Of a DNA stretch of 64,000 bases, positions 3,735 to 62,234 are shown piece by piece. Both the position numbers and the translations under genes were made by a program. The stretch is from Hydrurus foetidus. Its lineage: Eukaryota. How positions within the stretch are numbered: the first letter of the stretch is position 1; each line of letters begins with the position of its first letter. The notes beneath the pieces were generated by a model. It worked only from the letters and a program-made list of their open reading frames with translations, made no database searches and was not told where the DNA came from. The stretch lies in NCBI GenBank assembly GCA_900617105.1, contig UYFQ01000001.1, positions 1,054,001 to 1,118,000 of the forward strand. The letters run 5' to 3'.

Positions 3735-5447
3735 ATGGCCAACGTAGAAATTCAAGTTCCTGATATCGGTGATTTTGATGAAGTCACCGTGATCGAGTTG
3801 ATGGTGAAACCCGGCGACACGGTGAAGGCCGACCAGTCGCTTATCACCGTCGAATCCGACAAAGCGTCGATGGAGATCCCCTCCAGCCACGCCGGTGTGG
3901 TGAAAGAGCTGCGCATTAAGCTGGGCGACAAAGTCAAGCAAGGCTCCATCGTGTTGGTGCTCGAGACCGAGGGCGGCGCTGCTGCTGCCCCAGCCGCTGC
4001 ACCCGTTGCAGCACCTAACCCTGCGCCAGCGCCTTCTGTACAAGCACCTGCTGCTCCTGTTGTTGTAGCGCCTGTCGCCGCAGCAGCCAGCGTAGGCTTG
4101 ATCGAAGTGCGCGTGCCTGACATCGGCGACTTCAAAGACGTGGCCGTGATTGAGCTGCTGGTCAAAGTGGGCGACACCATCAAGGCTGAGCAATCGCTGA
4201 TGACGGTGGAGTCTGACAAAGCGGCGATGGAAATCCCCTCATCGTCAGCAGGTGTCATCAAAGAACTCAAAGTCAAGCTGGGTGACAAGGTCAACATTGG
4301 CGACTTGGTGGTGATTTTGGAAGGTGCCATTACTGCATCGTCAACGGCATCGGCTTCTCCTGCCGCAGCGGTTGCAGTGCCTGCACCTGCTGCAGCGCAG
4401 GCTGCACCGACACTAGCAGCTACAACTTCTGTAGCGGTTGCGGTGTTTGCCCCTTCCCCTGTTGCTGCCAGTGTCCCCGCGCATGACCCTACCGCCAGTG
4501 CGCTGCACCTGCCTCACGCCAGCCCCTCCGTGCGCAAATTCGCCCGCGAACTTGGCGTGCCGTTGGAAGAACTCAAAGGTACAGGCCACAAGGGCCGCAT
4601 CACCGAAAGCGATGTACAAGGCTTCACCAAGTCCGTCATGGCCGGTGCAGTGCAGACCAAAGCCCAGGTGGCGAATGCCCCTAAAGCGGCTGCGGGTGCC
4701 AGTGATGGTGGCGGCTTGGGTCTGTTGGCTTGGCCCAAGGTCGATTTCGCCAAGTTCGGCCCGGTTGAGCGCAAAGACATGTCGCGCATCAAGAAGATCA
4801 GCGGTGCTAACCTGCACCGCAACTGGGTCATCATCCCGCACGTCACCAACCATGACGACTGCGACATCACCGACCTGGAAGCCTTCCGCGTCAGCATGAA
4901 CAAAGAGAACGAGAAGTCTGGCATCAAGCTCACGATGCTGGCCTTCATGATCAAAGCCAGCGTGGCGGCTTTGAAGAAGTTCCCCGAGTTCAACAGCTCG
5001 CTTGATGGCGACCAGCTGGTGATGAAGCAGTACTTCAACATCGGTTTCGCGGCAGACACGCCAAACGGCTTGGTCGTCCCCGTCATCAAAGACGCAGACA
5101 AAAAAGGCGTGATGCAAATCTCTACCGAAATGGGTGAACTCGCTAAAAAGGCCCGTGATGGCAAGCTGGGCCCGGCCGACATGAGCGGTGCCTGCTTCAC
5201 CATCTCGTCGCTGGGTGGCATTGGCGGGCGGTACTTCACCCCCATCATCAACGCCCCCGAAGTCGCCATCATGGGTGTGTGCAAGAGCGCGATCGAACCC
5301 AAGTGGGACGGCAAAGCCTTCCAGCCGCGTTTGATGTTGCCGCTGTCGCTGTCGTGGGATCACCGCGTGATCGACGGTGCCGCTGCTGCCCGCTTCAACG
5401 CGTTCTTTGGCCAAGTCTTGACGGACTTCCGTCGAGTCCTTCTGTAA
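3735..5447 (+). CDS. aceF: Dihydrolipoyllysine acetyltransferase (PDH E2) with two lipoyl domains
   Basis: Two ESDKA lipoyl motifs, Ala/Pro linkers, HASPSVRKFARELG subunit-binding domain, catalytic DHRVIDG. Confidence 0.98.
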   Translation: MANVEIQVPDIGDFDEVTVIELMVKPGDTVKADQSLITVESDKASMEIPSSHAGVVKELRIKLGDKVKQGSIVLVLETEGGAAAAPAAAPVAAPNPAPAPSVQAPAAPVVVAPVAAAASVGLIEVRVPDIGDFKDVAVIELLVKVGDTIKAEQSLMTVESDKAAMEIPSSSAGVIKELKVKLGDKVNIGDLVVILEGAITASSTASASPAAAVAVPAPAAAQAAPTLAATTSVAVAVFAPSPVAASVPAHDPTASALHLPHASPSVRKFARELGVPLEELKGTGHKGRITESDVQGFTKSVMAGAVQTKAQVANAPKAAAGASDGGGLGLLAWPKVDFAKFGPVERKDMSRIKKISGANLHRNWVIIPHVTNHDDCDITDLEAFRVSMNKENEKSGIKLTMLAFMIKASVAALKKFPEFNSSLDGDQLVMKQYFNIGFAADTPNGLVVPVIKDADKKGVMQISTEMGELAKKARDGKLGPADMSGACFTISSLGGIGGRYFTPIINAPEVAIMGVCKSAIEPKWDGKAFQPRLMLPLSLSWDHRVIDGAAAARFNAFFGQVLTDFRRVLL

Positions 5448-6031
5448 TGACCACCGTCGTTGTTGTTAAGAAAAATGGCCAAGTCGCCATCGCCGCCGAT
5501 TCGTTGGTGACGTTTGGCGACACCATGCTGGGGCCCCGCTTTGAGGCCAACAGCAAGATCGTCATGGTCGATACGCTGGTCGGGCCGACCTACATTGGTG
5601 CGGCAGGCACGGTCGCGCACTTCCCCGTGCTGCGCCGGGCCTTGAACAGCTTGTCCCTTGACCAGCGCTTGTTGGGCAGCAAAGACGAGGTGTTCGACAC
5701 CTTCACCCGGCTGCACCCCTTGCTCAAAGAAAACTTCTTTTTGCAAACCAAAGAAGACGACAACGACCCCTACGAGTCCAGCCAGTTCAGCGTGCTGGTG
5801 GCCAATGCCACCGGCATCTACGGCCTGTACAGCTACCGCGAAGTCTTCGAGTTCAAAGAATTCTGGGGCATCGGCTCAGGCCGCAGCTTTGCACTCGGTG
5901 CCATGCAGGCGGTGTGGGCCAAAGCCAAAACTGCCAAAGAAGTGGCCGTTGCGGGCATCACCGCCGGCTGCGAATTCGATAAAAGCTCTGGCCTGCCGGT
6001 GGACGTGTTCACCGTCAAGCTCAAAGCTTAA
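5447..6031 (+). CDS. Ntn-hydrolase, proteasome beta/HslV-like (probable betaproteobacterial proteasome homolog, BPH)
   Basis: ATG overlaps the aceF stop (TAATG); N-terminal MTT, AIAADS, GIGSG and D..SG motifs typical of proteasome-fold Thr proteases. Confidence 0.75.
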   Translation: MTTVVVVKKNGQVAIAADSLVTFGDTMLGPRFEANSKIVMVDTLVGPTYIGAAGTVAHFPVLRRALNSLSLDQRLLGSKDEVFDTFTRLHPLLKENFFLQTKEDDNDPYESSQFSVLVANATGIYGLYSYREVFEFKEFWGIGSGRSFALGAMQAVWAKAKTAKEVAVAGITAGCEFDKSSGLPVDVFTVKLKA

Positions 6032-6078: not shown

Positions 6079-7923
6079 ATGGCACTGATTGAAATCAAAG
6101 TCCCCGACATTGGCGATTTCGCCGAAGTCACCGTCATCGAATTGATGGTCAAACCCGGCGATACCGTCAAGGTAGACCAGTCGCTGCTGACCGTGGAGAG
6201 CGACAAAGCCTCCATGGAAATCCCTTGCAGCCACGCCGGTGTGGTCAAAGAATTGCGCGTCAAGCTGGGCGATAAAGTCGCCGAAGGCACCGTGGTGCTG
6301 ATGCTGGAAGCCGCTGGCGAGGCGGCTGCTGCACCTGTGGCCGCAGCGCCTGCACCTTCCACACCTGCTACCCCCGCACCTGTGCAAGCTGCACCGGTAT
6401 CAGCAGCTATCACTTCCGTAGCATCAACTTACACCGGCGCTGTTGATCTCGACTGCGATCTGCTGGTGCTGGGCGCTGGCCCTGGTGGCTACAGCGCGGC
6501 TTTCCGTGCGGCTGATTTGGGCCTCAAAGTCGTGATCGTCGAGCGCTACGCCACCTTGGGCGGTGTCTGCCTGAACGTCGGCTGCATCCCGTCCAAAGCC
6601 CTGCTGCATGTCGCATCCGTCATGGATGAAGTCAAGCATTTTGAAGCCTTGGGTGTCACCTTCGCCGCCCCAGAAATTGACCGTGCCAAGCTGCTCGGCC
6701 ACAAAAACAAAGTCGTCAGCAAGTTGACCGGCGGCCTCAGCGCCATGGCCAAGATGCGCAAAGTCACTGTCGTGCGTGGCTACGGCGCGTTCCTCGATGC
6801 CTTCCACGTTCAGGTGGAAGAAACCACCGGCACGGCGCAAGAGAAGACCGGCAAATCCCAAACCATCAAGTTCAAAAACTGCATCATCGCCGCAGGCAGC
6901 CAAGCCGTACGCTTGCCGTTCATGCCCGATGATCCGCGCGTGGTTGATTCCACCGGCGCACTGGCGATGGGCACGGCCCCCAAGCGCATGCTGATCCTGG
7001 GTGGCGGCATCATCGGCTTAGAGATGGGCACCGTCTACAGCACCCTGGGCGCACGCCTGGACGTGGTGGAAATGATGGACGGCCTGATGCAAGGCGCTGA
7101 CCGCGATCTGGTCAAAGTCTGGCAAAAAATGAACGCCTACCGTTTCGACAACATCATGTTGAATACCAAAACGGTCGGTGCCAAAGCCACCCCCGAAGGC
7201 ATCGAAGTCACCTTCGCCCCAGCGGCAGAAGGCGGCACCTGCCCCGCACCGCAAACTTACGATCTGGTCTTGCAAGCCGTAGGCCGCACGCCCAACGGCA
7301 AAAAGATCGCCGCTGACAAAGCTGGTGTCACCGTCACCGACCGTGGTTTCGTGCCCGTCAACATCCAAATGCGCACCAACGTGCCCCACATCTTCGCCAT
7401 CGGCGACATCGTGGGCCAACCCATGCTGGCCCACAAAGCCGTACACGAAGCCCATGTCGCTGCCGAAGTCATCGCCGGTGAAATCCAAGGCAATAAAGAA
7501 CTCGCCAGCGCCGCCTTCAACGCCCGCGTCATCCCCAGCGTCGCCTACACCGACCCCGAAGTCGCCTGGGTTGGCCTCACCGAAGACCAAGCCAAAGCCC
7601 AAGGCATCAAGGTCAAAAAAGGCCTGTTCCCGTGGACGGCATCAGGCCGCGCCATCGCGAATGGCCGCGACGAAGGCTTCACCAAACTGCTGTTTGACGA
7701 CAGCCCCGAAGCCCACGGCCACGGCAAAATCCTGGGCGGCGGCATCGTCGGCACCCACGCTGGCGACATGATCGGCGAGATCTCTCTGGCGATTGAAATG
7801 GGTGCTGATGTGGTCGATATCGGCAAAACGATTCACCCGCACCCAACGCTGGGGGAGAGCATTGGCATGGCGGCTGAAGTGGCGCATGGGTCATGCACGG
7901 ACTTGCCGCCTGGGAAGAAGTAA
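6079..7923 (+). CDS. lpdA: Dihydrolipoamide dehydrogenase (E3) with N-terminal lipoyl domain
   Basis: GAGPGG FAD motif, GGVCLNVGCIP redox disulfide, GGGIIG, HPHPTLGE; start set to the ATG after GGAG. Confidence 0.98.
   Translation: MALIEIKVPDIGDFAEVTVIELMVKPGDTVKVDQSLLTVESDKASMEIPCSHAGVVKELRVKLGDKVAEGTVVLMLEAAGEAAAAPVAAAPAPSTPATPAPVQAAPVSAAITSVASTYTGAVDLDCDLLVLGAGPGGYSAAFRAADLGLKVVIVERYATLGGVCLNVGCIPSKALLHVASVMDEVKHFEALGVTFAAPEIDRAKLLGHKNKVVSKLTGGLSAMAKMRKVTVVRGYGAFLDAFHVQVEETTGTAQEKTGKSQTIKFKNCIIAAGSQAVRLPFMPDDPRVVDSTGALAMGTAPKRMLILGGGIIGLEMGTVYSTLGARLDVVEMMDGLMQGADRDLVKVWQKMNAYRFDNIMLNTKTVGAKATPEGIEVTFAPAAEGGTCPAPQTYDLVLQAVGRTPNGKKIAADKAGVTVTDRGFVPVNIQMRTNVPHIFAIGDIVGQPMLAHKAVHEAHVAAEVIAGEIQGNKELASAAFNARVIPSVAYTDPEVAWVGLTEDQAKAQGIKVKKGLFPWTASGRAIANGRDEGFTKLLFDDSPEAHGHGKILGGGIVGTHAGDMIGEISLAIEMGADVVDIGKTIHPHPTLGESIGMAAEVAHGSCTDLPPGKK
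7517..7923 (+). repeat. Direct repeat copy 1 (lpdA 3' end, 407 bp)
   Basis: Colinear with 13385-13791 at a constant offset of 5868 at both ends; mostly synonymous differences. Confidence 0.95.
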
Positions 7924-7953
7924 ACTGCTAAAACACTATTAAATTAATAGCTA

Positions 7954-7989
7954 GCTGCGCAATCCCTACTGGGGGTACGCGGCTTTTTT
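7954..7989 (+). terminator. Putative intrinsic terminator after lpdA
   Basis: gctgcg...cgcggc stem followed by a T run; a related sequence follows the second lpdA copy. Confidence 0.5.
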
Positions 7990-8052
7990 AATGCGTAATG
8001 AGAATGTGACTCTCAGTACTTGTTCAGACGCGTACAGAATTGGGCCTGCAGG

Positions 8053-11000
8053 TCATGGTCGCTCCGCTGCTCTCAACCATGTGTTGATGCCATCGACACC
8101 TAATTCCAACAATGTGTCTTGTAGCGCGACCACACGTTTAATCATTTCACCGTCGTCAGACTCCTCTCGCTCCTCCGCATTGGCAAATAAGCGAGTCAGC
8201 AATTGGGTTAGGTTGTTTTCGTAGTCGTGCAGGTAGGGCTTGGTGCGTTTGACATAGGCCAGATAAATTTCAGTAACGGCTAAGGCTTGCTCTGGATCGT
8301 GTTGTGCCGTGCTGTTCAGCCATTCATCAACGCCAATCAAGCGGTGGTGCTTGTTCTCATCATCTTTTTCGAGGACATCGAAGTGGCGCTGGATCAGTGC
8401 TGTTGGCACAGAAACCACCTGTGTTTTATCTCTGAATAAGTGATCCATCTGTCCCGCAACTGATTTGGCGTGTGCATTTCTGGCATTCAAACCAGCTTCA
8501 AGTCCTGCAAGACATTGTTCACGGTATTTACGGATATTTTCAGGGTGCGTCCAAACGCTTGCAGCACCCCACCACGCTTCAGTGGCATCCAGCACTTTCA
8601 ATTCTTCGAGAAATACGGAAAAGTCGAGGTGTCCCACCAGGGCTGCTAACGCAGATATGCGCCCCCAAATTTCAAAGTCCTTGCCTTTTCCTTCTTTGAG
8701 AATACGCGGCAGCATGGCTGCAACTCTCTCAAAATGATCGTGATAAGCGTAATAAAGACAAGTTTCCGCACTTTCCCATAATCCCTGTGAGTCCACCATC
8801 GCGCTGTGGAATAAATCCCAGCCTAGTGCTGGGTTACGACTTTGAATTGAGGGTAAACGACGCAAGACCAGCGCACGTATTGCTGGGTGTTCGTCTGCGG
8901 CAAAACGGCGTAGCGTGGCCGAAAGAAGTTCTGGAAATATGGCGTTTTTTTCCAGGAACTGATTGGCCAAAATCATCAAGGTTTCGACAACGTGGCCGCG
9001 CACCATGTTGATGCCAGTGGTCAGTAAATCAACGGAGTCGCCGCGGATAGAGCTTTCTTCTCTCAGTGTTTCATATCCGATGGCTAAAAATACCAGCCGC
9101 GCTGTATCTTGGCTGTCAGTCACAACATGTGCGCAGGCTTGCAATGCATTGGATGCCGAGCGGTTGTGGTGCCAGTAGCTAGGGTGCCTTTCGAGTTCGT
9201 CAATGATTTGTCGTGCCAAGCTGGGCGCATCCGGTTCTTCGCTCGGTTTCCAGGTGGCATTGGCTTGCAAGCTGCCATAGCGGTGTGCCAGATAGTTGGC
9301 GACACCGTCCATGATGTCATTGCAAAAACTGTCGGAAATATCCGTCCAATGCGCGGGCAACAGATGCAAGAAACGCGTAGGTTGGCGGGACGCTGCTTCG
9401 CGCAGTTGCCAGCCAACCTCTCGTTCGCCACCGATCAGAAAGTCATCGCCGTGCGAATTTGATTGCCCGGTGTAATGCGCCAGTAATCGCAGCACCCCAG
9501 CATCGGTAGCCTTCAAAAAAACCTCGTATGAAAACGGTGCGCCGACCATACCGCCACGCATTCCTATGCGCGGCTGGCGGATGAGATAGCCCACTGTTTG
9601 TACTTGTGCGTCCAACAAAGCTTGTGCTTTTGGTGAACGCAGATAACAAGGTACTGTGACGATCAGTTGAGCTTGCTCGCGTAATATCCAGTCGCGGTTG
9701 AGATCGTCGTTAGCCTCATCTTCATCGCGTAGGGACAAGATGGCTTCCAGCACCGCATCCTGAGCGGGAACCGTCAGGTGCCTGAATGCTGCTTGTACCA
9801 AGGTGCCTATTTCATACGATAAATCAGACTTCAACAACGGCTTGTCGCACAACATCTGCGCAATTAGGTCAACGTTGGCTTCTGGCTCTGCTGTGCAAGC
9901 GAGGACGGCGAAGTAGCGCAATGCCCCCTCGTTGTTGGAGCAGAGGCTTTTACGGTTGTTCTGCCACCAGTCGGAATGAGCCTGGGCATGGGTCAAAATT
10001 GCAGCTTCCACGGCATCCAATAGCACTCGTTCACCGTCAATATGGCGATGGTCGGTTTGACTGTGGGCATCGTTGTACGAGGTTTTACGCAGGAATCCAC
10101 TCCAATAATTGATTCCATATTGAGATAGCCGGGCTTGGCTCCATTGCTCAATCGACGCAAGTGCTAAATCCAGTAGTAACGGAGATTGCTGCATCCTTTG
10201 AAGGAGAAATTTTTCATTGCTGTCGCCAAACTCATGGGGTTGACAGAATAGCTTGTCACCAAATTGATGCGAGAGTGCGTCAACACTGCTGATGTCACCG
10301 ACTACATAGCGCCAAAGCAATGTGTCACTCAGCCCACCTGAAGTGATACCGCGTGCGATAGCAAGTCCTAGAAAGCTGTGTTGACGTCGCGGGAGGTTGA
10401 TTAATATTTCAAGTAAAGGGGCAAGTAGTGCGGTATCAGCAATTCTGATGTCGAAAAGATACAAGCCCAAACGTTCAGCCATTTGATCGCGTGCTACCCA
10501 GTCCAGCGACAGAGCTTCAGTCCAGAAGGCCAAAATGCCCGCTGTGTCGTCATCTTTCCACTGCTGTACCCGATGCACATGTATCGCTATTCCTTCTGCA
10601 TCGTGCGTGGTTTTTAAAGCCGGGACGAGATGTTTAAACCAAAAGTGATGCCATTCAATTGCTGTAGCCTGGGTGTAAATGACCTGATACACGTCACGAT
10701 ACGTTGTGCGCAAATCGTTTATCAAGCTCCAGTCGTCATTCTCCGGTTTTTGCTCTGCAAAGGATTCGGCTACCAAGCGGCGGATGTGGAAGGGAGCCGT
10801 GCCAGTCAGAACCGTACGCAATTGCTTCCGGAATTCGTTGCGCGCTCCAATGGCCAATTGTGCTACAAAGCTACGGATGCTGGGGCGTACAAAGGGCACG
10901 GGAGGCAAGCGTTGAATGAAGGCGTTCAATGTGACACCCTGTCGCACCGCGCCGCTAATCACCAGAACATCCAGCAGGGTTTGGTGTCCGAACGTCAGTT

Positions 11001-13278
11001 TTCCATCTTGTGTTTCGTGCAAAACGTTATGGCTGCGTAATGCCTTCAAGATATCTTCTGACGCTGAAAATCGTTGGCGGGGGACTGCCAAGCTTCGAGT
11101 TTTTAGCATTTCGTCAGCAATAGCTTCAATTGCTTGCATCGCCGGGTCACCCAGTACTTCGTTGTTCTGCACAATGGTTTTGAGGTAGTTCTGGGAAAGT
11201 TCGTGGCTGGTAACCGCATTGACGCTGGCAGACTGTTTGGACAGTTCAACAAACAAGGCCAATTCGCGTGGGTTTTGAATCAATTCGCGGGTTACTGCAT
11301 CAGTCGTGCTTGTGTCGATGTTTAGTTTGGTTAGCAGTGGTGCAATTTCGGTGTCCCAGTTCAAGGCTGGGCACGTCAATTCAACATCCCATTTGCGCTC
11401 GGCTATGCTGCGGTCGTATTTGCGGTCGAACTCACGGCATGCTGTGACCACGGTTACGTTTGGAATTAAAAGCAGTCGGTCTATTTGCGCCAGAAAATAT
11501 GTCAGAACTGTGTGCTCGCGGGCAATGGAAAGCACATCCAACGAGTCGATCACCACAACCACTCGCGCTTCTTTTGCGATGCGCGCCACTTGTTCTACCC
11601 ACTGTATTGGTAGGCCTTGGGCTTGGCGGTCTTTCGCGGTGGATTGGTCTGCGAACTCTCGTGACTGGATAAAGAGTGGTACTAGGTCAGTATGGGTTTG
11701 TGCGCGCTGCTCCAGCAAGTCTTGTAGCGCTAACATCGCGCAGGTTTTTCCAGAGCCGGGTAAGCCAGTGAGCAAAATGGCGCGTTTACCTTCGTCAATG
11801 GCTTCAAAAAGCCTGTTTACGATTTGGCTGGAAATTTTTTCTCCCGAGATGTCTCTATGCCACCCCCTTCCAATGGCGGAAATACTGGCAAACGATGCCC
11901 GTATTTCAGCAATATCTATCTCCGGATTTACTGCGGTTGTAGGCGAAGTAGCGGGTGTTGTTGTTGAGCTTGTCGGTGGCTCTATGGTGGCTGGGCTATC
12001 ACCGAAATGCCAACCTAACGCGTCGGCTAACTGCTTTGCGCATTGGTTCCAGCTGCAATGTTCGAGTAAGCCGCGGTGAAGTTGTGCGGCCTTTTGTCTG
12101 TGTATTGCAGGGTCTTTTGCAATTTGGATCAGGGCATTGGAGAGTGCTTTGAGGTCTTCGGGGCGAAAGTATGGGGACTGGTTGCTGCCCGCTATTTCAA
12201 TCGCATGCACCATCGAGGTGTAGAGTCCATTTTCAAGCTCACGCAGGTAGTGGTAAGCACCACTTGTGGTACTCACGATCAAAGGAACGCCGGCGGCGAT
12301 CGCTTCCCAGGCGACTAAACCAAAACCTTCATGCCACGAGGGCATCATCGCAACGCTAGCTGCGCGTAAATCATTGAATAATTCTTCGCGGTCTTTGGTG
12401 AATGGCAAGGCATGCATGGCTAGCACGCCTTTCGCGTATTTCTCTGCAAACGCTTTTAGATCTCGCTCGGCATGTGGGTCAATCGTTCCGGTAGATTTTT
12501 CAAACTCAACCCCGCGTAAAACGAGCAAGGGCTCGTTTCGCCGGTGCAATGCATCCGGTAGTCCACCATCCTGCGAGCACCGGCTTATAGCTTCGCCAAA
12601 GGCTGCCACGCCTAAGTAGGCCTGTTTTATCTTGCTTGCGCTGTCGTCAAGGCGGCCACTTAAAAACGCCTTAAAAGTTCGTGGTTCTGGTCGATGTGTG
12701 ATTGCCGGAAAGCCTGGCACCAGCATTGGTACATCTTCACCATCAAGCATGTCGCTCATAGCATCGCGCAGCAGAGGGCCGACTGCCAGTACGATGTCAG
12801 CTTGCGCAAACAATTTTTTCTGCTCTGTTACTTTTGAGTGTGTTTGAACACTGTTTTCGGCAAAAAATTCATAGTGTTTGTAACTCATGTGGTGAATCAA
12901 TGCCGATCGCCCCCCGAGTTCTTTAGCTGATGCCAAGGCTATGTCGCCGGTAATACGGTCATGGCCTAGCCAAACTGTTTCGGCTGTGTTGGCTTGGATG
13001 TCTGCATCTTGCAATGCTTGGGATACCTTGGATTCCAATTCAGCGTTGAATTTATCCGTCCCAGGTAGACCACCTAGTGAAACCAGCGACACGTTTTTAC
13101 TGCGAGCCGCATCAATTTCGGCACTACTGGCATGCGGAACAACACAAACAGTTTTAACTTCTTTTTGAAAATCGGCTGCGATAGCTGGTAGTAAGTCGGC
13201 GTTAAAGCTGTTGATTCCCCCGAACTGCGGCCCCCAGCCGGTAGCAAACGCAACCAGTGTTTTTTTAATCTGAGTCAT
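8053..13278 (-). CDS. GT4 glycosyltransferase - STAND (NACHT/Avs-like) NTPase fusion with a long C-terminal region; putative antiphage protein
   Basis: 1741 aa. N-terminal GT-B domain (FGGINSFN; MMPSWHEGFGLVAWEAIAAGVP containing EX7E), Thr/Pro linker, Walker A GLPGSGKT, Walker B VVVVIDSLD, VVTACR, NPRELALF, FGHQTLLD, then ~950 aa C-terminus. Confidence 0.8.
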   Translation of the reverse strand: MTQIKKTLVAFATGWGPQFGGINSFNADLLPAIAADFQKEVKTVCVVPHASSAEIDAARSKNVSLVSLGGLPGTDKFNAELESKVSQALQDADIQANTAETVWLGHDRITGDIALASAKELGGRSALIHHMSYKHYEFFAENSVQTHSKVTEQKKLFAQADIVLAVGPLLRDAMSDMLDGEDVPMLVPGFPAITHRPEPRTFKAFLSGRLDDSASKIKQAYLGVAAFGEAISRCSQDGGLPDALHRRNEPLLVLRGVEFEKSTGTIDPHAERDLKAFAEKYAKGVLAMHALPFTKDREELFNDLRAASVAMMPSWHEGFGLVAWEAIAAGVPLIVSTTSGAYHYLRELENGLYTSMVHAIEIAGSNQSPYFRPEDLKALSNALIQIAKDPAIHRQKAAQLHRGLLEHCSWNQCAKQLADALGWHFGDSPATIEPPTSSTTTPATSPTTAVNPEIDIAEIRASFASISAIGRGWHRDISGEKISSQIVNRLFEAIDEGKRAILLTGLPGSGKTCAMLALQDLLEQRAQTHTDLVPLFIQSREFADQSTAKDRQAQGLPIQWVEQVARIAKEARVVVVIDSLDVLSIAREHTVLTYFLAQIDRLLLIPNVTVVTACREFDRKYDRSIAERKWDVELTCPALNWDTEIAPLLTKLNIDTSTTDAVTRELIQNPRELALFVELSKQSASVNAVTSHELSQNYLKTIVQNNEVLGDPAMQAIEAIADEMLKTRSLAVPRQRFSASEDILKALRSHNVLHETQDGKLTFGHQTLLDVLVISGAVRQGVTLNAFIQRLPPVPFVRPSIRSFVAQLAIGARNEFRKQLRTVLTGTAPFHIRRLVAESFAEQKPENDDWSLINDLRTTYRDVYQVIYTQATAIEWHHFWFKHLVPALKTTHDAEGIAIHVHRVQQWKDDDTAGILAFWTEALSLDWVARDQMAERLGLYLFDIRIADTALLAPLLEILINLPRRQHSFLGLAIARGITSGGLSDTLLWRYVVGDISSVDALSHQFGDKLFCQPHEFGDSNEKFLLQRMQQSPLLLDLALASIEQWSQARLSQYGINYWSGFLRKTSYNDAHSQTDHRHIDGERVLLDAVEAAILTHAQAHSDWWQNNRKSLCSNNEGALRYFAVLACTAEPEANVDLIAQMLCDKPLLKSDLSYEIGTLVQAAFRHLTVPAQDAVLEAILSLRDEDEANDDLNRDWILREQAQLIVTVPCYLRSPKAQALLDAQVQTVGYLIRQPRIGMRGGMVGAPFSYEVFLKATDAGVLRLLAHYTGQSNSHGDDFLIGGEREVGWQLREAASRQPTRFLHLLPAHWTDISDSFCNDIMDGVANYLAHRYGSLQANATWKPSEEPDAPSLARQIIDELERHPSYWHHNRSASNALQACAHVVTDSQDTARLVFLAIGYETLREESSIRGDSVDLLTTGINMVRGHVVETLMILANQFLEKNAIFPELLSATLRRFAADEHPAIRALVLRRLPSIQSRNPALGWDLFHSAMVDSQGLWESAETCLYYAYHDHFERVAAMLPRILKEGKGKDFEIWGRISALAALVGHLDFSVFLEELKVLDATEAWWGAASVWTHPENIRKYREQCLAGLEAGLNARNAHAKSVAGQMDHLFRDKTQVVSVPTALIQRHFDVLEKDDENKHHRLIGVDEWLNSTAQHDPEQALAVTEIYLAYVKRTKPYLHDYENNLTQLLTRLFANAEEREESDDGEMIKRVVALQDTLLELGVDGINTWLRAAERP

Positions 13279-13384
13279 GGTTGGTTTTTATGTAAAAGCG
13301 ATTTCTCATTTTGCAGGCAAATCGAACTGCTCAACTGCCTGGTTTGTTAAGTCTGTTTCGAGGGGCGACATTGCTGTTTTCTGC

Positions 13385-13791
13385 TCAACGCCAGAGTGAT
13401 TCCGTGGGTGGCCTACACCGACCCCGAAGTCGCCTGGGTTGGCCTCACCGAAGACCAAGCCAAAGCCCAAGGCATCAAGGTCAAAAAGGGCTTATTCCCC
13501 TGGAACGCCTCAGGCCGCGCCATCGCGAATGGCCGCGACGAAGGCTTCACCAAACTGCTGTTTGACGACAGCCCCGAAGCCCACGGCCACGGCAAAATCC
13601 TGGGTGGCGGCATCGTCGGCACCCACGCTGGCGACATGATCGGCGAGATCGCTCTGGCGATTGAAATGGGTGCTGATGTGGTCGATATCGGCAAGACAAT
13701 TCACCCGCATCCGACGCTGGGGGAGAGCATTGGGATGGCGGCTGAGGTGGCGCATGGCAGTTGTACGGACTTGCCACCTGCGAAGAAGTAG
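13385..13791 (+). pseudogene. lpdA: Duplicated 3' fragment of lpdA (direct repeat copy 2)
   Basis: Encodes VAYTDPEVAWVG...HPHPTLGE...DLPPAKK only; FAD and NAD domains absent. Confidence 0.9.
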
Positions 13792-13821
13792 GTTGTTGAA
13801 TTGCTACTGATTCAGTAGCTG

Positions 13822-13858
13822 GCTGCGCAAATCCTGTAAAGGCTGCGCGGCTTTTTTT
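13822..13858 (+). terminator. Putative intrinsic terminator after the lpdA fragment
   Basis: gctgcgc...gcgcggc stem plus T7. Confidence 0.5.
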
Positions 13859-14131
13859 ATGTTTTTAAGGGGCAGTCCGAAAAAACCAGGAAGCCAAAAA
13901 TCCGCTGAGAGTTCACCAGAATTGAATGGATATATTGGCCATGCCACCTCTACTTTGCAATTGAAAAAAATTGCGTGCCCCGACAGAGTACCTGCTGAAA
14001 AAGAGGTGACTTCACTGTTCAAGCCATGCCTATACTGTCCTCATAGATATTTGAATATGTTCCCAGTGCTTCGAACATATGCCTGTGTTTGTGACCCACC
14101 TCGTTCTCGGCCCTCATCTGGAGTTGAACCT

Positions 14132-15025
14132 ATGAAGTCTTTTCCCTCTCGTTTCAAGACAATGGCTTGTCTGAGTGCCTTGCTGGCGCTAGGAGGCTGC
14201 GCAACTTCAATGGTCAGCACCGTACCAGTGGTAACTGCCACTGCAGCCAAGGCCATCAACACGACCGGGCCGTCGGGCAGCGGTGTGAACAATGCGCTGA
14301 TTCATGCCGTGGCTTGGAAGCAAACTGCTGCGGAATACCGTGCTTTGTACTACCAAGGTTTTAACGTGGCACGCATGCATGTAGAGGCTGCTATTGCCAA
14401 GCGCAAACCAGGGGAGAAACCGCTGGCGGTGGTCACCGACATGGACGACACGGTTCTTCATGCCATGAATTACTGGGGCCACTTGGTCAACAAAAATTTA
14501 GATTATTTTGACGACCCGATTTGGGATGCCTGGATTCCCGAGAATAAAGTCACTGCCTCACCAGGTGCCAGTGATTTTTTAAAGTTTTGTGCCGACAACA
14601 ACGTCGAGGTCCACTACATAACCAGCCGTGAGCAAGGCGAAAAGACCTACGAATATGCCATGGGCCACCTCAAGTACCTGGGCTTTCCGTATGCAGACAG
14701 CAAGCATTTGACAGTTCTGCGCGACACCTCCAATAAAGAAAAACGTCAAGACGAGGTGATGAAAGACTATAACGTCGTAGTCTTTCTGGGCGATAACCTG
14801 AACGATTTTCGCCGCAAGTACTACCTCAAGAACGATGTGGATGGCCGCATCAAAATCATGGAAGGTGATCGCGACAAGTACGGACGCAATTACATCCTCT
14901 TCCCCAACCCTACCGATGGCCACTGGCTGGCGGCCATCTTTGGTGACTCGGAGCCACCTCCTACCGATGCCAATCGCGAGATCATGAAAAAGGCTGCGAC
15001 GAAATCGGCTTGGGGTGTCAACTGA
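14132..15025 (+). CDS. Lipoprotein e(P4)-family acid phosphatase / 5'-nucleotidase (HAD class C)
   Basis: Lipobox LALGGC; WKQTAAEYRALYYQGFN, DMDDT, GDNLNDF, PNP motifs; start moved to the ATG after GGAG. Confidence 0.85.
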   Translation: MKSFPSRFKTMACLSALLALGGCATSMVSTVPVVTATAAKAINTTGPSGSGVNNALIHAVAWKQTAAEYRALYYQGFNVARMHVEAAIAKRKPGEKPLAVVTDMDDTVLHAMNYWGHLVNKNLDYFDDPIWDAWIPENKVTASPGASDFLKFCADNNVEVHYITSREQGEKTYEYAMGHLKYLGFPYADSKHLTVLRDTSNKEKRQDEVMKDYNVVVFLGDNLNDFRRKYYLKNDVDGRIKIMEGDRDKYGRNYILFPNPTDGHWLAAIFGDSEPPPTDANREIMKKAATKSAWGVN

Positions 15026-42394: not shown

Positions 42395-43111
42395 TCACTT
42401 GCCGGTGTAACGCTCTAGCGCGTTGGCACTGCTTTTCATGACCAGCTTGTCGCCCTCGCCGGGCAGCAAGAGCAGACTGTAGGTGAGGCCTTGGGTCATG
42501 GTCAGCGGAGCTTTGGCGAGCGCTGTTTTATCCCCAACTTTAGAGGCTTGAAGTTCGATGGTGACCGGGTTCACCGCCAAAGAGCTTGATGTGCCGGGGG
42601 CAACACCTGCGAACACTTTGGTGTTGCCGTCTGCCGTCAGCGTGTCGATCACACCGGCTTTGGGGGCAAGGTGGTAGACCGTCAGCACAGCTTTGAGTTT
42701 GTTGGAATTGGCTTTGTCGGCGAAAAACAGCGGTTTGCTGTCTGCACCCAAATGGGCCAGGGCCACGGTGACTGAGCGGCCAGCGACGACTTCCAGCGGA
42801 ATTTCCGTGCTGCCCGATTTGCCACTGCCTTGCACTTTAAGTTGATGCTGCCCAGCTTTGAGCACCATGTAATCGCTGGCGGTGGCGGCAACCAAGCCTT
42901 GCAGGCGGGGCTTGCCGTCGAGTTGCACATCCATTGGGCCATCCGCGCTGATCACGATGACGCGGACGTAGGCCGAATCGGCAGGAGGCTGCGGGTCGTA
43001 CAGCGTTCCGATGGTTTGGGCTGTGGCATAGGGGGCAAAGCCTGCCGCCGATAGCGCCAAAAGAAGAGGGGTAAGAAGACGATAGAGACGCGGGGCGACA
43101 GGTGTTTTCAT
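42395..43111 (-). CDS. AlgF-family O-acetylation accessory protein
   Basis: Signal peptide; LYDPQPPADSAYVRV, VNPV motifs; adjacent to the AlgX/J-like gene. Confidence 0.75.
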   Translation of the reverse strand: MKTPVAPRLYRLLTPLLLALSAAGFAPYATAQTIGTLYDPQPPADSAYVRVIVISADGPMDVQLDGKPRLQGLVAATASDYMVLKAGQHQLKVQGSGKSGSTEIPLEVVAGRSVTVALAHLGADSKPLFFADKANSNKLKAVLTVYHLAPKAGVIDTLTADGNTKVFAGVAPGTSSSLAVNPVTIELQASKVGDKTALAKAPLTMTQGLTYSLLLLPGEGDKLVMKSSANALERYTGK

Positions 43112-43229
43112 CGGTATATAAGGAATGATGAAGGGATGAACCTAGAGTGAGGCTACACAAACCTCTGGCGCTGAGGGCTTGTGATTTGAATTCTACAGAG
43201 CGACCATGAATGCCCGGTAACATTCGCAG

Positions 43230-44345
43230 ATGACTTTTCTTGACTGCCTCAAGCTGTGGCGCGCTCTTTTAAAAAGCTTGCTGCTGGTGACTGTCTTGGG
43301 TTGTACTTTGCCTGCCAACGCAGGGCCGCAGCGGGTGTGGGGCTATGTGGCGTGGTGGATGCAAGACACCTGGAAAACGCTGCCGCTCGCTAATTTTGAG
43401 CGTTTGATTTTTTTCCAAATCGACATAAGCAGTAACGGTGCGCTGGAAGAGTTGCACGGTTGGCCTGACCAGTGGACAGGTTTGACCACCGCAGCGGCTG
43501 ACAGCGGCGTGGCGCTGGATTTGGGGTTGACCTTGCTGGAGCCGGCCATCTTCAATGCTGTGTTCAGCTCGAATGCCGCCACCCAGCGGCTGCTAGGCGA
43601 TGCGCTGGCGCTGGCATCCCAGCCAGGGGTGAGTGGTTTGCACCTGGACGTGGAAGTCAACAGCCGCACGGCTGGTCTGCGGGTGGGTACGCTCAAGCGC
43701 TTTCGCAGCTTCGTCGCCACCCTCGCGCAAAAGCTCAAGCAGCAATCCCCACCGCGCAGCTTGACGGTCTTTTTGCCGTTTGGCGACTATGGTGCTGTTT
43801 ACGATGCCCCCACGCTGGCCCGTGTCGATCATGCGGTGCTGCAAGGCTATGACGCTCACTATTTAGACAGTCCGAACGCTGGCCCCATCTCACCGCTGGC
43901 GGGTGAGGATTTCGCCACCTGGGAAAAGATGCTGGCCCAAGCCGACAAACTGGGCTTGGCGCGTGGGCGTACCGTGATGAGCTTCCCGCTGTACGGTTAC
44001 GAGTGGAATGTGCCCAGCTGCACGCCACGCGGTCAGCACGAGGGCAAGGGGGAAACCACCACGCTGCTACCGATGGATCCTCAACTGGCGCCCACGCTGA
44101 ACATCAGCATCACCGACAGGGTGGCACGCTACGGTGCGCAGGCGGAGCCGTTGAGCGATTCGCTGTACTACACGTTTGTCTCCCCCGCTGGCGTGTGTAC
44201 GGTGGGGTGGTTTGAGGATTCATACAGCCTCAAGCGCAAAGCGGATTGGCTGGAAAAGCAAAATCTGCGGGGCTTGGCATTTTTCCCGCTGGGGTATGAC
44301 CAGGGGGCGCTGGTCAGTATTATGTTGCAGCGCTGGAAGCGCTAG
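43230..44345 (+). CDS. GH18-family glycoside hydrolase-like protein
   Basis: Signal peptide; GLHLDVE (DxDxE variant), LQGYDAH, AGPISPL, PLYGYEW, WFED..SL..K, LRGLAFF.LGYD. Confidence 0.75.
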   Translation: MTFLDCLKLWRALLKSLLLVTVLGCTLPANAGPQRVWGYVAWWMQDTWKTLPLANFERLIFFQIDISSNGALEELHGWPDQWTGLTTAAADSGVALDLGLTLLEPAIFNAVFSSNAATQRLLGDALALASQPGVSGLHLDVEVNSRTAGLRVGTLKRFRSFVATLAQKLKQQSPPRSLTVFLPFGDYGAVYDAPTLARVDHAVLQGYDAHYLDSPNAGPISPLAGEDFATWEKMLAQADKLGLARGRTVMSFPLYGYEWNVPSCTPRGQHEGKGETTTLLPMDPQLAPTLNISITDRVARYGAQAEPLSDSLYYTFVSPAGVCTVGWFEDSYSLKRKADWLEKQNLRGLAFFPLGYDQGALVSIMLQRWKR

Positions 44346-44349
44346 AGTT

Positions 44350-46206
44350 TTAAAAATTGACTTGGTAAAAGTAATTGCCTGGCTCTAGCGTCTCAAACAC
44401 CACAGAGACTCTGAACTCGTCAAGCAGCGTGACTTTGGGCATGGGCATGTTGGGTTTCACGCCCGTGATAGTGGGCAGCACGCCTTTGCGGGGCAGCATC
44501 ACGATCAAAGTGCCGCCTTTGACAGGCAGCTTGCCACCCACGGCCACATCGAACTCGGTGCGAGGGCCATTCAGGCGCACCACCAAGCGAAAGCGCTCAC
44601 GGTCACGCCACCAGGCATTGACAGCGCTGGGGGTGGTCAGCCAAACCGTATTTTTTTGGGCGCTGACATGCGCCAAATAAGCTGGCATGGCCAGGTTGAG
44701 CGGTTGACCTTCCCCCAGGTTTTGGCTGTGAAGGCTGAACAGCCCCAAGGAGCCGGTGTCTCGCGCTAAATTGAAATCGTCCACCATGGCTTGGGTCAGC
44801 TTGGGCGCTTCGTTCATGCTGGTCAGTAGTTTGATGTCATCGCGCTGGGTGCGGGGTAGCACCATCAAGCCGTTCACAATGTCTGTGTCGGCGATGGGGG
44901 CAAAAAAGGGTAGCCGGGTGTCGGCGTCATGCGCGTCGGAGAGGTGGTGGCGGATACCGGCCTTTTGCAATGCAATCTCGGTGGTTTTGTCATAGCCTTC
45001 GTTCGGAGCACGAAACCCTGTGATGGCGCTGGTGTTAGCAACCACGCTTTGCATTTGCGACTGCATGTTGCTGATGCGTTGGGCTTGCACCTCGGAGGTC
45101 TGGTCTTTAAAGCTGACATGGATGTCACCGTGGTAGGCCACTTCAAAATCTCGCGCTAAACTTTTCAACACATCAGGGTATTCCAAGCCACTGCTGGTCA
45201 GCACGTAAAACGCACCTTTGTAGGCGATATCGCGCATCATTTTGGCGAGGAAGACGGCGTTCGGGAAGCCTTGCTCGGTGTCCATTTCGATCACATGGGC
45301 CGCTTTGTACCCATCAGGCCAAGCTGCTTTGGCAATGGAGGGGCGGTGCTTGAGCCATGTGAGGCTGTCTGTGACCAAGTTGTTGATGTCGGTAGGTTGC
45401 TGTTCCCAGCTGGATTCTGCAAAACCAAAAATCACTGAACGCCCGGCTTGTGGGCCGGTTTCTGCATAAAGAACCGCGCCTTCATCGAGGCGTGCAGGGT
45501 CAGGTGTGCGGGCCCAATTCATAAAACGGCCACCTACCCCAGTGCCTCTGAAACGCAGGGCGCGCTCTGAGGTGTTGCCGAGCAAAATGCGTTTGCCAGC
45601 ACCTTGGTTGAACGAGACGGGGGATTCGCCGCTCAAGATCAAATAGCCCGCATCGGCTTCTTTGGAAAGTTCACCCACGAATTTGGCAGCGCCCAGTTTT
45701 TCTAAAAACTCCCAGCCCGTCCATTCGCCAGCAGGGCCGCGTGTGCCTGTTGCCCAGGTCGCCAAAACGCTGCCACCTCGGTCGCGAAAAGCCAAAATCT
45801 CTTGGCGCTCAGCCATGCTCAAGGCCGCTGCTGAGGGCAACACGAGCACACCTGATTTCAGCGCACTCAATTCAGCCACATCTGTTATTTCTTTGGTTTT
45901 AGGCTTGATGGTGTCAAAGTACTTGCGCCACGGTGTCAACAGCGTGTCGTAGTTGCCGCCGATGCCCGTGTAAAAAGTTTTGCTGTTGGGTGAGATGTAC
46001 AACCATACGGATGCGCTTTCCGAGAAGGCTGTTCCCGTGCCTGGCCCGCCACCAATAACGGCAGTGGGCCAGCCCATGCCCTGCATGGCCATGGTGAAAA
46101 CCATCACGCTGGCCGCGATACCCATCACGAAAATACCTACCAAGTAGGTGCCAATACGCCGGTGTGCCGGGCGTACTTCAAAGGAATCGGGGTCTTCAGT
46201 TTGCAT
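44350..46206 (-). CDS. Membrane-anchored polysaccharide deacetylase (CE4/NodB-like)
   Basis: N-terminal TM; IEMDTE, YHGDIH, GFRAP, SLHSQ, VWLTT motifs. Confidence 0.75.
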   Translation of the reverse strand: MQTEDPDSFEVRPAHRRIGTYLVGIFVMGIAASVMVFTMAMQGMGWPTAVIGGGPGTGTAFSESASVWLYISPNSKTFYTGIGGNYDTLLTPWRKYFDTIKPKTKEITDVAELSALKSGVLVLPSAAALSMAERQEILAFRDRGGSVLATWATGTRGPAGEWTGWEFLEKLGAAKFVGELSKEADAGYLILSGESPVSFNQGAGKRILLGNTSERALRFRGTGVGGRFMNWARTPDPARLDEGAVLYAETGPQAGRSVIFGFAESSWEQQPTDINNLVTDSLTWLKHRPSIAKAAWPDGYKAAHVIEMDTEQGFPNAVFLAKMMRDIAYKGAFYVLTSSGLEYPDVLKSLARDFEVAYHGDIHVSFKDQTSEVQAQRISNMQSQMQSVVANTSAITGFRAPNEGYDKTTEIALQKAGIRHHLSDAHDADTRLPFFAPIADTDIVNGLMVLPRTQRDDIKLLTSMNEAPKLTQAMVDDFNLARDTGSLGLFSLHSQNLGEGQPLNLAMPAYLAHVSAQKNTVWLTTPSAVNAWWRDRERFRLVVRLNGPRTEFDVAVGGKLPVKGGTLIVMLPRKGVLPTITGVKPNMPMPKVTLLDEFRVSVVFETLEPGNYFYQVNF

Positions 46207-46287
46207 GGATGGAGTGCGGTGTACGCCGTGGTGCCAACAGTGCAGCTTTAGAGGGTTAGCCGCATGAACTGCACGACGTGCGCAAAG

Positions 46288-46554
46288 CTATTTGGTGGCA
46301 ACGGTGACCATGGGCGGCGCGTCGGCCGTGAGCGGAGCAGGCACTGTGGTACCACTCAGCCCGCTTTGCTTTTGAGGCTTGTAGCGGGTAAGGAAGATCG
46401 GCTCAGAAGGGTTGTGGGCAAGGGTTGTGGGGTCTTTTTTGCTGGGCTTGCGTTTGTCGCGCAGCTTAAAGGCCACATACGCCGCTACCGCCACCACCAG
46501 GGTGCCGATGGTCGTCAACAAAATGACGGTAGCCAGAATTGAGATTAAATCCAT
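46288..46554 (-). CDS. Small single-TM protein in the EPS operon
   Basis: 88 aa, hydrophobic N-terminus then basic stretch; starts 3 bp after the GT2 stop. Confidence 0.65.
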   Translation of the reverse strand: MDLISILATVILLTTIGTLVVAVAAYVAFKLRDKRKPSKKDPTTLAHNPSEPIFLTRYKPQKQSGLSGTTVPAPLTADAPPMVTVATK

Positions 46555-46557
46555 GTG

Positions 46558-47916
46558 TTAAAGCTTTCCTTCCCGTTGCAATTTGCCCCAGGTCATTGCT
46601 GTTCCTCGCCATTCTTCTAAAGTGGCAAATACTTTGGATACATCCACGATCGTGATGTAAAACAAACGAAATCCAATCGCGTAACCAATCAGTGCAGGAT
46701 CTTCTTCCTCCACTACCACGCAGTAGGTGGCGGCAATCACATCCAGCATGGTGAGCTGTAGCCACCAGTAAAAAATGAACAGCACAATACCGTAGCGTAA
46801 ACCCACGTAAGCAAAAAAAACACTGCCTGCGACCGTAGAAATAGGCCAAATGATGCCCTCAAAGAGCATGTACCACAGGATGTAGAAATTAATACCCGCT
46901 TTGCTGGGTTGCCACAGCGCTGAACGATGCTTGCGCATAGCCTGCAAAATACCTCGTGTCCAGCGGTAGCGCTGCTTAAGCAAATCCAGCAAACCACTGG
47001 GTGTTTCTACCCAGGCGATGGCGGTGGGCTCGTAAGCGATATGCCAGCCACGCATCAGCATTTTGAGGGTGAGATCGCAGTCTTCAGCAAAAGTGTCTTG
47101 GTCGTAGCCACCCACTTGTTGGAGTACTGTTTTGCGGAACATGCCCAGCGGGCCAGGAATGATGTTGACCGAGCGCATGAAACTTTGCGCTTTGCGTGCC
47201 ATTGCCAAACCTTCGACGTATTCCAAAGCCTGAACCCTTGTCCAGATGTTTTCGCGGTTCAGCACCTTGACGTTGCCGGCCACAGCGCCGATACGGGGGT
47301 CGTCAAAATGCCGAATGCAGGCGCGCAGGGTATTGCGAGAGAGCTTGGTGTCGCCATCCATGTTCAAAACAAACTCGCCTCGGGCGTTGGTCATTCCTGT
47401 GTTGAGTGCATCGGCTTTGCCGCCGTTGGCTTTGGAAATCACGCGAACGGGGATCACGGTGCTTTGGCGAGCGACTGCCAAGGCTTTTTCATAGGTATCG
47501 TCGGTGGAGCCGTCGTCAACAATCAACACCTCGTAGTTGGGGTAGTCGAGCTTCAGCAGCGAACGGATAGCAGCCTCAATGACGGGGCCTTCGTTGTAGG
47601 CGGGAACCACCAAACTTATCATCGGCAGTGAGGCATCGTCTTGCACACTCTGCTCTTTTTGCTGACGTTTTTTGACTTGGTATTCCAGATGCTCCATGAA
47701 GGAGAGCAGTATCAACAAGCCATATCGGAAGATCAATAGCGTCAAGAAAAACAGCAGGTAGAGCGAAATAGCACTCAGGATGAAGTTCTCAATCAGAACC
47801 TGGAAAGCATTTAAGCCAAGTGACAGCAGTTGTAAATGGTTGAAAGCGATGAGCATCATCGCAATACCAACGACAGTCAAGCCTAATACGTAGCGGAAGA
47901 TGCGACCCTTTACCAA
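46558..47916 (-). CDS. Processive GT2 glycosyltransferase, PgaC/IcaA-like
   Basis: PAYNE, DDGSTD, GGKADALN, DGD, PGPLGMFR, AED, QRYRW; N- and C-terminal TMs; TTG start overlapping the upstream stop. Confidence 0.88.
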   Translation of the reverse strand: MVKGRIFRYVLGLTVVGIAMMLIAFNHLQLLSLGLNAFQVLIENFILSAISLYLLFFLTLLIFRYGLLILLSFMEHLEYQVKKRQQKEQSVQDDASLPMISLVVPAYNEGPVIEAAIRSLLKLDYPNYEVLIVDDGSTDDTYEKALAVARQSTVIPVRVISKANGGKADALNTGMTNARGEFVLNMDGDTKLSRNTLRACIRHFDDPRIGAVAGNVKVLNRENIWTRVQALEYVEGLAMARKAQSFMRSVNIIPGPLGMFRKTVLQQVGGYDQDTFAEDCDLTLKMLMRGWHIAYEPTAIAWVETPSGLLDLLKQRYRWTRGILQAMRKHRSALWQPSKAGINFYILWYMLFEGIIWPISTVAGSVFFAYVGLRYGIVLFIFYWWLQLTMLDVIAATYCVVVEEEDPALIGYAIGFRLFYITIVDVSKVFATLEEWRGTAMTWGKLQREGKL

Positions 47917-59851: not shown

Positions 59852-59939
59852 TTCTATTAAGCTTCCACCGCGGTGGTGATCATTTTTTTGCTAAGCTTCG
59901 CACCACAGTAATTGTTGCGCTTATGTACAGGTTCGCCCT

Positions 59940-60977
59940 ATGAAAAAGCTTATCGACGGTTTGGCCAATTTAACCAGCCTGCGAGACCACGATGCCCTGG
60001 ATCTAGCACTCACAAAGCTGGTGCAAACCTTGCACCAACCGCACCCTGTCAGTGTGCGGTTGGTGCGCATTGTGGGGGAGCCCAATGACCAGCGTTGCAT
60101 GACGTGCGTCCTGCTGGGGGCACAAGGCGCAGAGCCACAACGTGATTCAACATGGATAAGCTGGGAGGCATTGCCTGCCTTGGTGGATTTTCCAGCCCGT
60201 CAAGCAGCCATTGGCCGCGAAGAAATTGAATATTCCACCGCGCTTTTACCTACGACGGTTTTTCCTATGGGGGAAAACAGAGGAACTTCCCTGCTGTTGG
60301 AGCTTGAAACGACGCAGCCACTCATGCATGACACTGAGGGCTTGATTCAAAGCGTTTTGCAGGTTTACAAAAATCTACTGGGATTGCTAGACTATGGCGA
60401 AAAAGACGCGTTGACTGAGCTGCTGAACCGCAAAACGTTCGACGGTGCTTTCTTCAAAGCAGCGGCAGACCAAGACACCGTGAGCGAACTGGGTCACCCA
60501 GACCGTCGCATGAAGAGCGAAGGCCATAGCTATTGGCTGGCGGTGTTGGACATTGACCACTTTAAACATGTCAACGACAATTTTGGCCACTTGATTGGTG
60601 ACGAAGTGCTGCTGCTACTGGCGCAACTCATGCGCAGCAGTTTTCGCTTCCACGACCAGCTGTACCGCTTTGGAGGTGAAGAGTTTGTGGTAATGATGCG
60701 CTGTGCTTCGCACAGCGATGCCGTTTCTGCGCTGGAACGCTTCCGCTGCCTGGTGGGGTCGCATGCTTTTCCGCAGGTGGGTACGATCACCATCAGTACG
60801 GGATTCGCCGGATTGGCCAACGGTGACACGCCAAGTGGTGCGTTTGGCCGAGCTGACAAGGCGGTGTACTACGCCAAAGGCCATGGCCGTAACCAAGTGT
60901 GCAGCTACCTGGAACTTGTGAAGGCGGGTGAACTGGTCGAGCAGGTGGTAGAAACCCACGATGTTGATCTTTTTTAA
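59940..60977 (+). CDS. Diguanylate cyclase (GGDEF), copy 1
   Basis: DALTELLNR, DIDHFK.VNDNFGH..GD, RFHD I-site, RFGGEEF, ADKAVYYAK..GRN. Confidence 0.93.
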   Translation: MKKLIDGLANLTSLRDHDALDLALTKLVQTLHQPHPVSVRLVRIVGEPNDQRCMTCVLLGAQGAEPQRDSTWISWEALPALVDFPARQAAIGREEIEYSTALLPTTVFPMGENRGTSLLLELETTQPLMHDTEGLIQSVLQVYKNLLGLLDYGEKDALTELLNRKTFDGAFFKAAADQDTVSELGHPDRRMKSEGHSYWLAVLDIDHFKHVNDNFGHLIGDEVLLLLAQLMRSSFRFHDQLYRFGGEEFVVMMRCASHSDAVSALERFRCLVGSHAFPQVGTITISTGFAGLANGDTPSGAFGRADKAVYYAKGHGRNQVCSYLELVKAGELVEQVVETHDVDLF

Positions 60978-61008
60978 CCAACTAACGCTCTTACTTTGAT
61001 AGATTACT

Positions 61009-62203: not shown

Positions 62204-62234
62204 CCAACTAACGCTCTTACTTTGATAGCTTACT

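Follow-up and report, generated by a model that had tools for sequence, protein, structure and literature searches.

An islet with a predicted defence gene between two lpdA 3′ ends, probably left by capture of the ISPps1/ISCR8 type

In a 64,000-nucleotide stretch of contig UYFQ01000001.1 (assembly GCA_900617105.1, entered as Hydrurus foetidus), hereafter the window, the 3′ end of the dihydrolipoyl dehydrogenase gene, lpdA, is present twice, and the sole long ORF between the copies encodes what is predicted, from sequence and a structural model, to be an Avs-like anti-phage defence protein. By analogy with related loci, the islet was probably laid down by a rolling-circle transposon, ISPps1/ISCR8, that is likely to have been deleted since. 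A lone islet of this kind is a modest finding and the weight rests on the family-wide pattern, where own lpdA tails recur downstream of the gene and the transposon itself is often found directly behind it. It is tentatively proposed that the chromosomal lpdA 3′ end is both the native home and the built-in homing arm of ISCR8/ISPps1, a Comamonadaceae-wide, integrase-free and integron-like platform for capturing, stacking and swapping defence and other genes between species, of which a piece may have escaped to become the plasmid element responsible for spreading catabolic genes, those for atrazine included.

The repeat and its surroundings

On realignment the two 407-bp copies match without a gap at a constant offset of 5868 and with 92.4% identity (31 differences), as the first-pass annotation had described, and the codon changes between them are mostly synonymous (21, including the TAA/TAG stop, as against four non-synonymous, S/W, T/N, S/A and G/A). 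On the 5′ side of 7517 and 13385 the identity of the copies falls to chance level. The same annotation had each copy followed by related palindrome and terminator sequences, and these are twin hairpins (Table 1), with which the whole repeat measures 477 nt at 88.7% identity (7517-7993 and 13385-13861). The twin hairpin type is kept 3′ of lpdA in about 19 genomes. The twin hairpin was considered as a possible end of the transposase's element and rejected, no tie being found and the type being a common lpdA terminator with weaker dispersed relatives. Weak dispersed relatives of the first palindrome after lpdA are present at window positions 23513, 24577 and 34255, which suggests a REP-like family.

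Table 1. Features of the islet and its borders in the window
Feature	Position	Strand	Remarks
Intact lpdA, encoding dihydrolipoyl dehydrogenase (lipoyl domain at the N-terminus)	6079..7923	+	TIGR01350 459 bits, above cutoff; Pfam
Left repeat copy, functional lpdA 3′ end	7517..7923	+	probably host 5′ part and incoming 3′ part
Twin hairpin after left stop: REP-like palindrome, terminator-like stem and T run	7932..7993	+	alignment, folding, nhmmer E 3.5e-13
Slot between left hairpin and cargo, about 60 nt	7994..8052	.	in relatives ISPps1/ISCR8 or its remnants are here
Cargo gene, sole long ORF between the copies: GT4-conflict glycosyltransferase, STAND/NACHT-like ATPase and helical repeats, 1,741 aa	8053..13278	-	
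Right repeat copy, promoterless lpdA 3′ fragment, still open, without 5′ part	13385..13791	+	
Twin hairpin after right stop	13799..13861	+	nhmmer E 7e-20; nearer the family pattern than the left hairpin
Gene for an e(P4)-like acid phosphatase lipoprotein, directly beyond the repeat	14132..15025	+	GC 0.52

Depth and junctions were checked in the Logan unitigs of run X11, which is probably the source sample and so not biologically independent. One unitig of 5,644 nt joins 7797-13380 to the start of the right copy at depth 50, as against 42-46 in lpdA, and both repeat alleles are found among the unitigs. With the junctions kept in a separate unitig assembly at flat depth, misassembly and amplification are both unlikely, and so the earlier idea that the repeats allow RecA-mediated excision or amplification of a 5868-bp unit is not borne out in this sample, among whose contigs no circular form was seen. 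A layout like that of the window is also found on large isolate contigs (L010, L018 and L069).

The gene involved is the last of an aceE-aceF-(HslV-like)-lpdA cluster. The HslV/proteasome-like Ntn-hydrolase gene between aceF and lpdA (window 5447-6031) is in that place in about 50 relatives and absent from others. In 134 of 141 loci the preferred third base changes from C to G or T over the last 45 codons of lpdA (window 7789-7923); such G/T-rich third positions were tried as a mark of the islet and abandoned, as they are family-wide and differ little between loci with and without fragments. The e(P4)-like phosphatase gene was not found in four congeneric genomes and is probably a second acquired gene. 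Elsewhere in the window a GGDEF gene has undergone a recent tandem duplication (59886-62243; 1,132 nt, 98% identical, spacing 1,226), and the 94 nt between its copies (61018-61111) are a copy of an internal piece (62507-62600) of the next gene, which encodes a dienelactone hydrolase. The glycosyltransferase, polysaccharide deacetylase-like and BcsE-like ORFs at 42395-51693, labelled from their translations, are presumably an exopolysaccharide locus.

The cargo gene

The GT4-conflict domain of the cargo protein (residues 10-417) matches PF20706 with an E value of 1.7e-80 and 271 bits (cutoff 26), and it is fused to a STAND NTPase with a Walker A motif at residue 505 and a PF05729 match (E 6e-6) that at 26.6 bits is marginally below the cutoff of 26.7. 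GC content is 0.51 in the islet and 0.60 in lpdA. The eleven shorter shadow ORFs of the islet match no Pfam family and no recombinase family, and for the cargo itself PADLOC and NCBIfam, including the curated Avs models, gave no named defence family. A model of residues 442-1293, built from eight sequences with a mean pLDDT of 76, folds into a STAND core with helical repeats; in the PDB it comes closest to Avs4, NLRs, SAMD9 and Avs3, the top match being Avs4 8dgf (E 2.6e-8, with TM scores low at 0.26-0.32), and its Atlas neighbours are unnamed AAA/NACHT proteins. In the predicted mode of action the repeats would sense an invader, the STAND domain would oligomerise and the glycosyltransferase would be switched on.

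Relatives of the cargo with 30-70% identity have neither lpdA nor ISCR8 nearby at 30 metagenome loci, and at L159 a STAND relative is directly 3′ of lpdA with neither fragment nor element, so that cargo of this kind arrives at the lpdA site by other routes too. At L159 and L206-L209 the STAND-repeat module (54-63% identity) has a different N-terminus of about 230 residues with no Pfam match, and with a motif that may point to a Cap4-like nuclease. Cargo at about 93-97% identity adjoins lpdA at 7510/7513 in contigs from three runs of two studies, and thus a cassette with a near-identical junction is present in other populations; at the one resolved joint 91 other letters stand between lpdA and cargo. 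Judged from contigs only, the species-specific part of lpdA (6247-6493) is almost uncovered in runs X1 and X2 and the cargo is covered, which would fit its presence in another host, although gaps in contig cover are no proof. Run X4 contributed no aligned pieces and run X5 four short ones. Loose contig ends at 8038 (30 letters) are like the window's own spacer and hold no oriIS, and no contig of the same species turned up in the metagenome collection in a search for an exact 47-nt pattern of lpdA.

The lpdA 3′ end as a family-wide hotspot

Loci for comparison came from two sources. A pattern scan gave 126 stretches, about 80 of them with flanks, and a sample of 401 genomes of the family gave 20 regions picked partly for closeness or multiple hits and 60 taken in rank order. 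With hand-picked loci left out and at least 4 kb of downstream sequence required, same-strand copies of a locus's own lpdA 3′ end are present in 27 of 113 related loci, or roughly between a fifth and a quarter (12 of 55 in the rank-order set and 15 of 58 in the pattern set, where duplicated loci are over-represented), whereas a comparable copy was found for 2 of 763 other long ORFs of the same loci. The relatives with repeated tails are freshwater and soil bacteria. All sets together provide 49 fragments, none of them inverted, that start from 40 to about 1,000 nt 5′ of the stop, and so the length of the duplicated anchor varies between events, as expected of ISCR-type capture. One fragment reaches aceF, several are stacked in arrays, many have internal deletions, frameshifts or stops, and for 18 of 35 the best match is the lpdA of the same locus.

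That lpdA is a hotspot for cassettes, as had been surmised from the window, is upheld by the downstream regions of congeners. One (G328) represents the empty state, with lpdA followed directly by a convergent gene pair that also follows in a second (G103); the second has about 4 kb of other genes after lpdA without a fragment, and a third (G233) has two lpdA fragments and element remnants. The narrower surmise that the cargo consists of defence genes is right in part. Of the 120 ORFs between repeats at 41 duplicated loci 104 were scanned (transposase pieces, antisense frames and some distant ORFs being omitted), and defence or toxin-antitoxin cargo is present at 16 of the 41 by raw count; the cargo of the others is metabolic, signalling or unknown. 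Among the former are a second GT4-conflict STAND-TPR gene, at L010 and oriented as in the window, and HEC-01, PDC-S01, HD-CE, a type II restriction-modification pair and Fic. Neither a tyrosine nor a serine recombinase is among the 104 ORFs, which include a single IS-type rve fragment. Candidates for new defence genes are the large or paired genes of no clear family at L077:2637-6425, L142:4503-8474 and L129:6858-8509.

ISPps1/ISCR8 behind lpdA

In many relatives a transposase of the IS91 family is encoded 50-120 nt 3′ of the lpdA stop, with the domains PF14319 and PF04986 (HUH, Y2) and, as seen in eight related elements, a LexA-box-like site 5′ of it; LexA control of ISCR8 is shown in sections of PMC13393415. 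The conserved end of the element, oriIS, reads CCTATCC and abuts variable cargo, the first two bases after it being GT in 21 of 23 distinct junctions; beyond the cargo there is often another lpdA 3′ fragment. Plasmid matches, with about 81% DNA identity and the same oriIS, carry the name ISPps1 (equivalent to ISCR8), and in pADP-1 and similar plasmids lpdA sequence is directly 5′ of ISPps1.

A search with the 5′ part of the transposase gave 30 loci, nine of which were set aside as truncated, distant or with less than 300 nt upstream, and in 19 of the 21 close copies with an intact start the element comes after an lpdA 3′ end, with several alleles and several terminators represented. Element remnants occur at 7 of the 27 duplicated and 6 of the 86 other loci (Fisher p=0.013) and, in the slot after the main stop only, at 6 of 27 and 6 of 86 (p=0.035), both tests being uncorrected for kinship and overstating significance because related genomes are not independent. 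They range from the whole element to a 60-nt piece and are mostly between the lpdA terminator and the cargo; in the control search reversed sequences gave no E value below 1.9. Two loci (L018 and L166) have remnants behind the hairpin type of the window, and at L127, L129, L130, L133, L148 and L165 there are full units. Of the 17 fragments whose best match is not their own lpdA, five are closest to alleles from loci where the element is nearly whole; kinship may account for part of this. Fragments start at GT in 8 of 46 cases as against 4.2 expected (p=0.055), which does not clearly bear out the GT start that the capture model predicts. A preference for G as the first base (19 as against 16.3 expected) was discarded, as it is gone against a codon-phase-matched background, and the GCTC of the window where 28 relatives read GTTC is a post hoc and weak observation.

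Some individual loci merit separate mention. L129 (G151:C1:1297000-1316999) has a nested array in which two ISCR8 ends have different cargo, together with a gspE fragment and a near-full second copy of the aceF end and lpdA. On a Piscinibacter plasmid (L268, NZ_CP136337.1 161660-176059) a unit of lpdA tail and ISPps1 stands at a distance of about 4 kb from a gene for a PET hydrolase. On another plasmid (L272, AP026971.1 193730-207787) the oriIS of ISPps1 abuts a chromosomal-type metZ-purF-cvpA-dedD-folC block that looks like captured core genes.

Traces of exchange in the window

In the window islet itself no transposase or other IS91 remnant was found by tblastn or nhmmer, no oriIS matches at either end of the cargo with up to six substitutions allowed, and there is no LexA box of the form CTGT-N8-ACAG in 7900-14200. 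On these grounds the islet is not itself an ISCR8 element, since the defining parts are absent, and with no trace of the element in the window an ISCR8 origin is what we infer. The description of the islet as integrase-free is accordingly true of the window copy, which has no recombinase gene, and probably not of its origin, given the HUH transposase in relatives. Its cargo is between direct partial duplications of the anchor, as is that of ISCR captures.

The right copy is of foreign type over its first 26 nt, where the two closest relatives match the left copy at 7 of 8 and 8 of 8 differing sites, in agreement with the earlier proposal that incoming DNA brought its own lpdA 3′ end and recombined in. 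Long blocks in the middle of the repeat are identical between the copies. The further part of that proposal, that the former 3′ end was displaced downstream, receives a weak indication from the last 147 nt of the right copy, which are slightly nearer the closest relative (129 as against 126 matches); genes to the right of the islet are not syntenic with those of congeners, so the former end is not confirmable that way. The mosaic of the right copy runs in the direction predicted by a single crossover, with a donor-type start and a host-type end. A second foreign-type block, at 7620-7641, suggests more than one exchange.

Origin of the islet

Parts of the literature on IS91 elements describe how copying from oriIS often overruns the end of the element and takes adjacent DNA (PMC13181058, PMC5737581), with one-ended transposition also treated in the former. 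For ISCR1 it is thought that two overruns yield a circle, made up of cargo and anchor, and that homologous recombination brings it back in (passages in PMC7707992), with the outcome that cargo stands between partial duplications (PMC9376610, likewise in part). Applied to lpdA, replication from oriIS would overrun the weak end of the element into lpdA, and the element would from then on travel with an lpdA tail of variable length. At a new site a second overrun would take a neighbouring gene as cargo and release it, with the lpdA tail and the element, as a circle, which RecA could cross into the chromosomal lpdA; the gene would stay whole and be followed by the element, the cargo and the second tail. 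Later deletion would remove the element, useful cargo being kept. With lpdA as the anchor, the ISCR1 model predicts the order lpdA, terminator, element, cargo, fragment, and this is the order found in the six loci with full units.

A route without any transposase is the foremost alternative, and is considered unlikely. By this account lpdA would be a homology anchor with an illegitimate join at the other end, by homology-facilitated illegitimate recombination or by way of a chance circle, and ISCR8 would be a passenger at a recombination-friendly conserved site. In its favor are the absence of element remnants from 20 of the 27 duplicated loci and from the window, the scatter of fragment starts with no clear motif, and the variable cargo without fragments at L125, L142 and L159. 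It leaves unexplained why lpdA is duplicated and equally conserved neighbors are not (the 27 of 113 as against 2 of 763), and why, on plasmids too, copies of the element are almost always joined to an lpdA tail. Homology-facilitated illegitimate recombination usually deletes target DNA rather than duplicating it, which also counts against such a route.

The gross layout of gene, insert and displaced 3′ end would be alike for an island whose integrase targeted the lpdA coding sequence, restored its 3′ end and has since been lost. The wide spread of fragment starts means that there is no fixed att site, and this, together with the lack of tyrosine and serine recombinases in the scanned inter-repeat ORFs and in the shadow ORFs of the window, largely refutes an integrase-driven origin and makes it very improbable. 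Selection could alternatively have kept the fragments as silent donor cassettes with which the C-terminus of LpdA is varied by gene conversion, and the still open right copy, its long blocks of identity with the left and the frequent best match of fragments to their own lpdA are what would be expected; the disrupted state of many fragments speaks against this, as does the mostly synonymous nature of the differences, which means that little protein variation is on offer, and the notion is hardly credible. An assembly artefact, conceivable as the repeat exceeds short-read length, has a negligible chance of being correct with copies that differ at 31 sites, both junctions in a separate unitig assembly and the same layout on the three isolate contigs.

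Relation to known systems

What is known of gene capture by ISCR elements comes chiefly from clinical integrons, and most of it remains a model, for which a natural version on the chromosome, showing dozens of independent events at every stage of decay, would be a testbed. The lpdA hotspot would also provide a likely origin for ISPps1, found beside catabolic genes in pADP-1 and other plasmids, and the DNA between lpdA and its repeated tail offers a route for mining new defence genes. The mechanism of capture is already known, and the adjacency of lpdA and ISPps1 is already visible in plasmid annotations. A literature search brought up no account of an lpdA hotspot in chromosomes or of defence genes captured by ISCR8; of earlier papers, Schleinitz et al. 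2010 on ISCR8/22/23 may already note the lpdA link, and Toleman 2006 may say more as well.

The prophage e14 and phage 21 integrate in icd and restore its 3′ end. As at lpdA, a long 3′-end duplication leaves a core metabolic gene intact; there, however, an integrase and one crossover site are involved, in contrast to the widely varying boundaries at lpdA. The cargo protein shares with the GT4-conflict STAND proteins, in the portion of Kaur et al. 2021 (PMC8195603) that deals with them, the fusion of a GT4 effector to a STAND NTPase and the predicted role as counter-invader effector. Avs3 and Avs4 are among its best fold matches, but it differs from them in having low TM scores and no PADLOC or named Avs match.

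The closest parallel is with the ISCR1 (CR1) complex class 1 integrons, in which, as set out in parts of PMC7707992, PMC9376610 and PMC13393415, an IS91-like element is fused to a fixed upstream sequence, the cargo follows oriIS and has a partial duplication of the anchor on either side, and re-entry of a circle by homologous recombination is thought to occur. The anchor there is qacEdelta1-sul1 of the 3′ conserved segment, whereas that role falls here to the 3′ end of lpdA, an essential gene on the chromosome; the cargo at lpdA is defence, toxin-antitoxin, signalling or metabolic, and the element is often eroded and in the window absent. ISPps1/ISCR8 of pADP-1 and other catabolic plasmids has the same transposase family, oriIS and upstream lpdA sequence, and a dihydrolipoamide dehydrogenase homolog common to pADP-1 and pTC1 is mentioned in a passage of PMC1713258. 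It is described as a plasmid element in the relevant part of PMC13393415, whereas here many Comamonadaceae have it on the chromosome, behind lpdA genes of differing alleles, and the window holds the inferred product alone. Most likely the islet in the window originated in an ISCR capture event and functions in the same manner as one.
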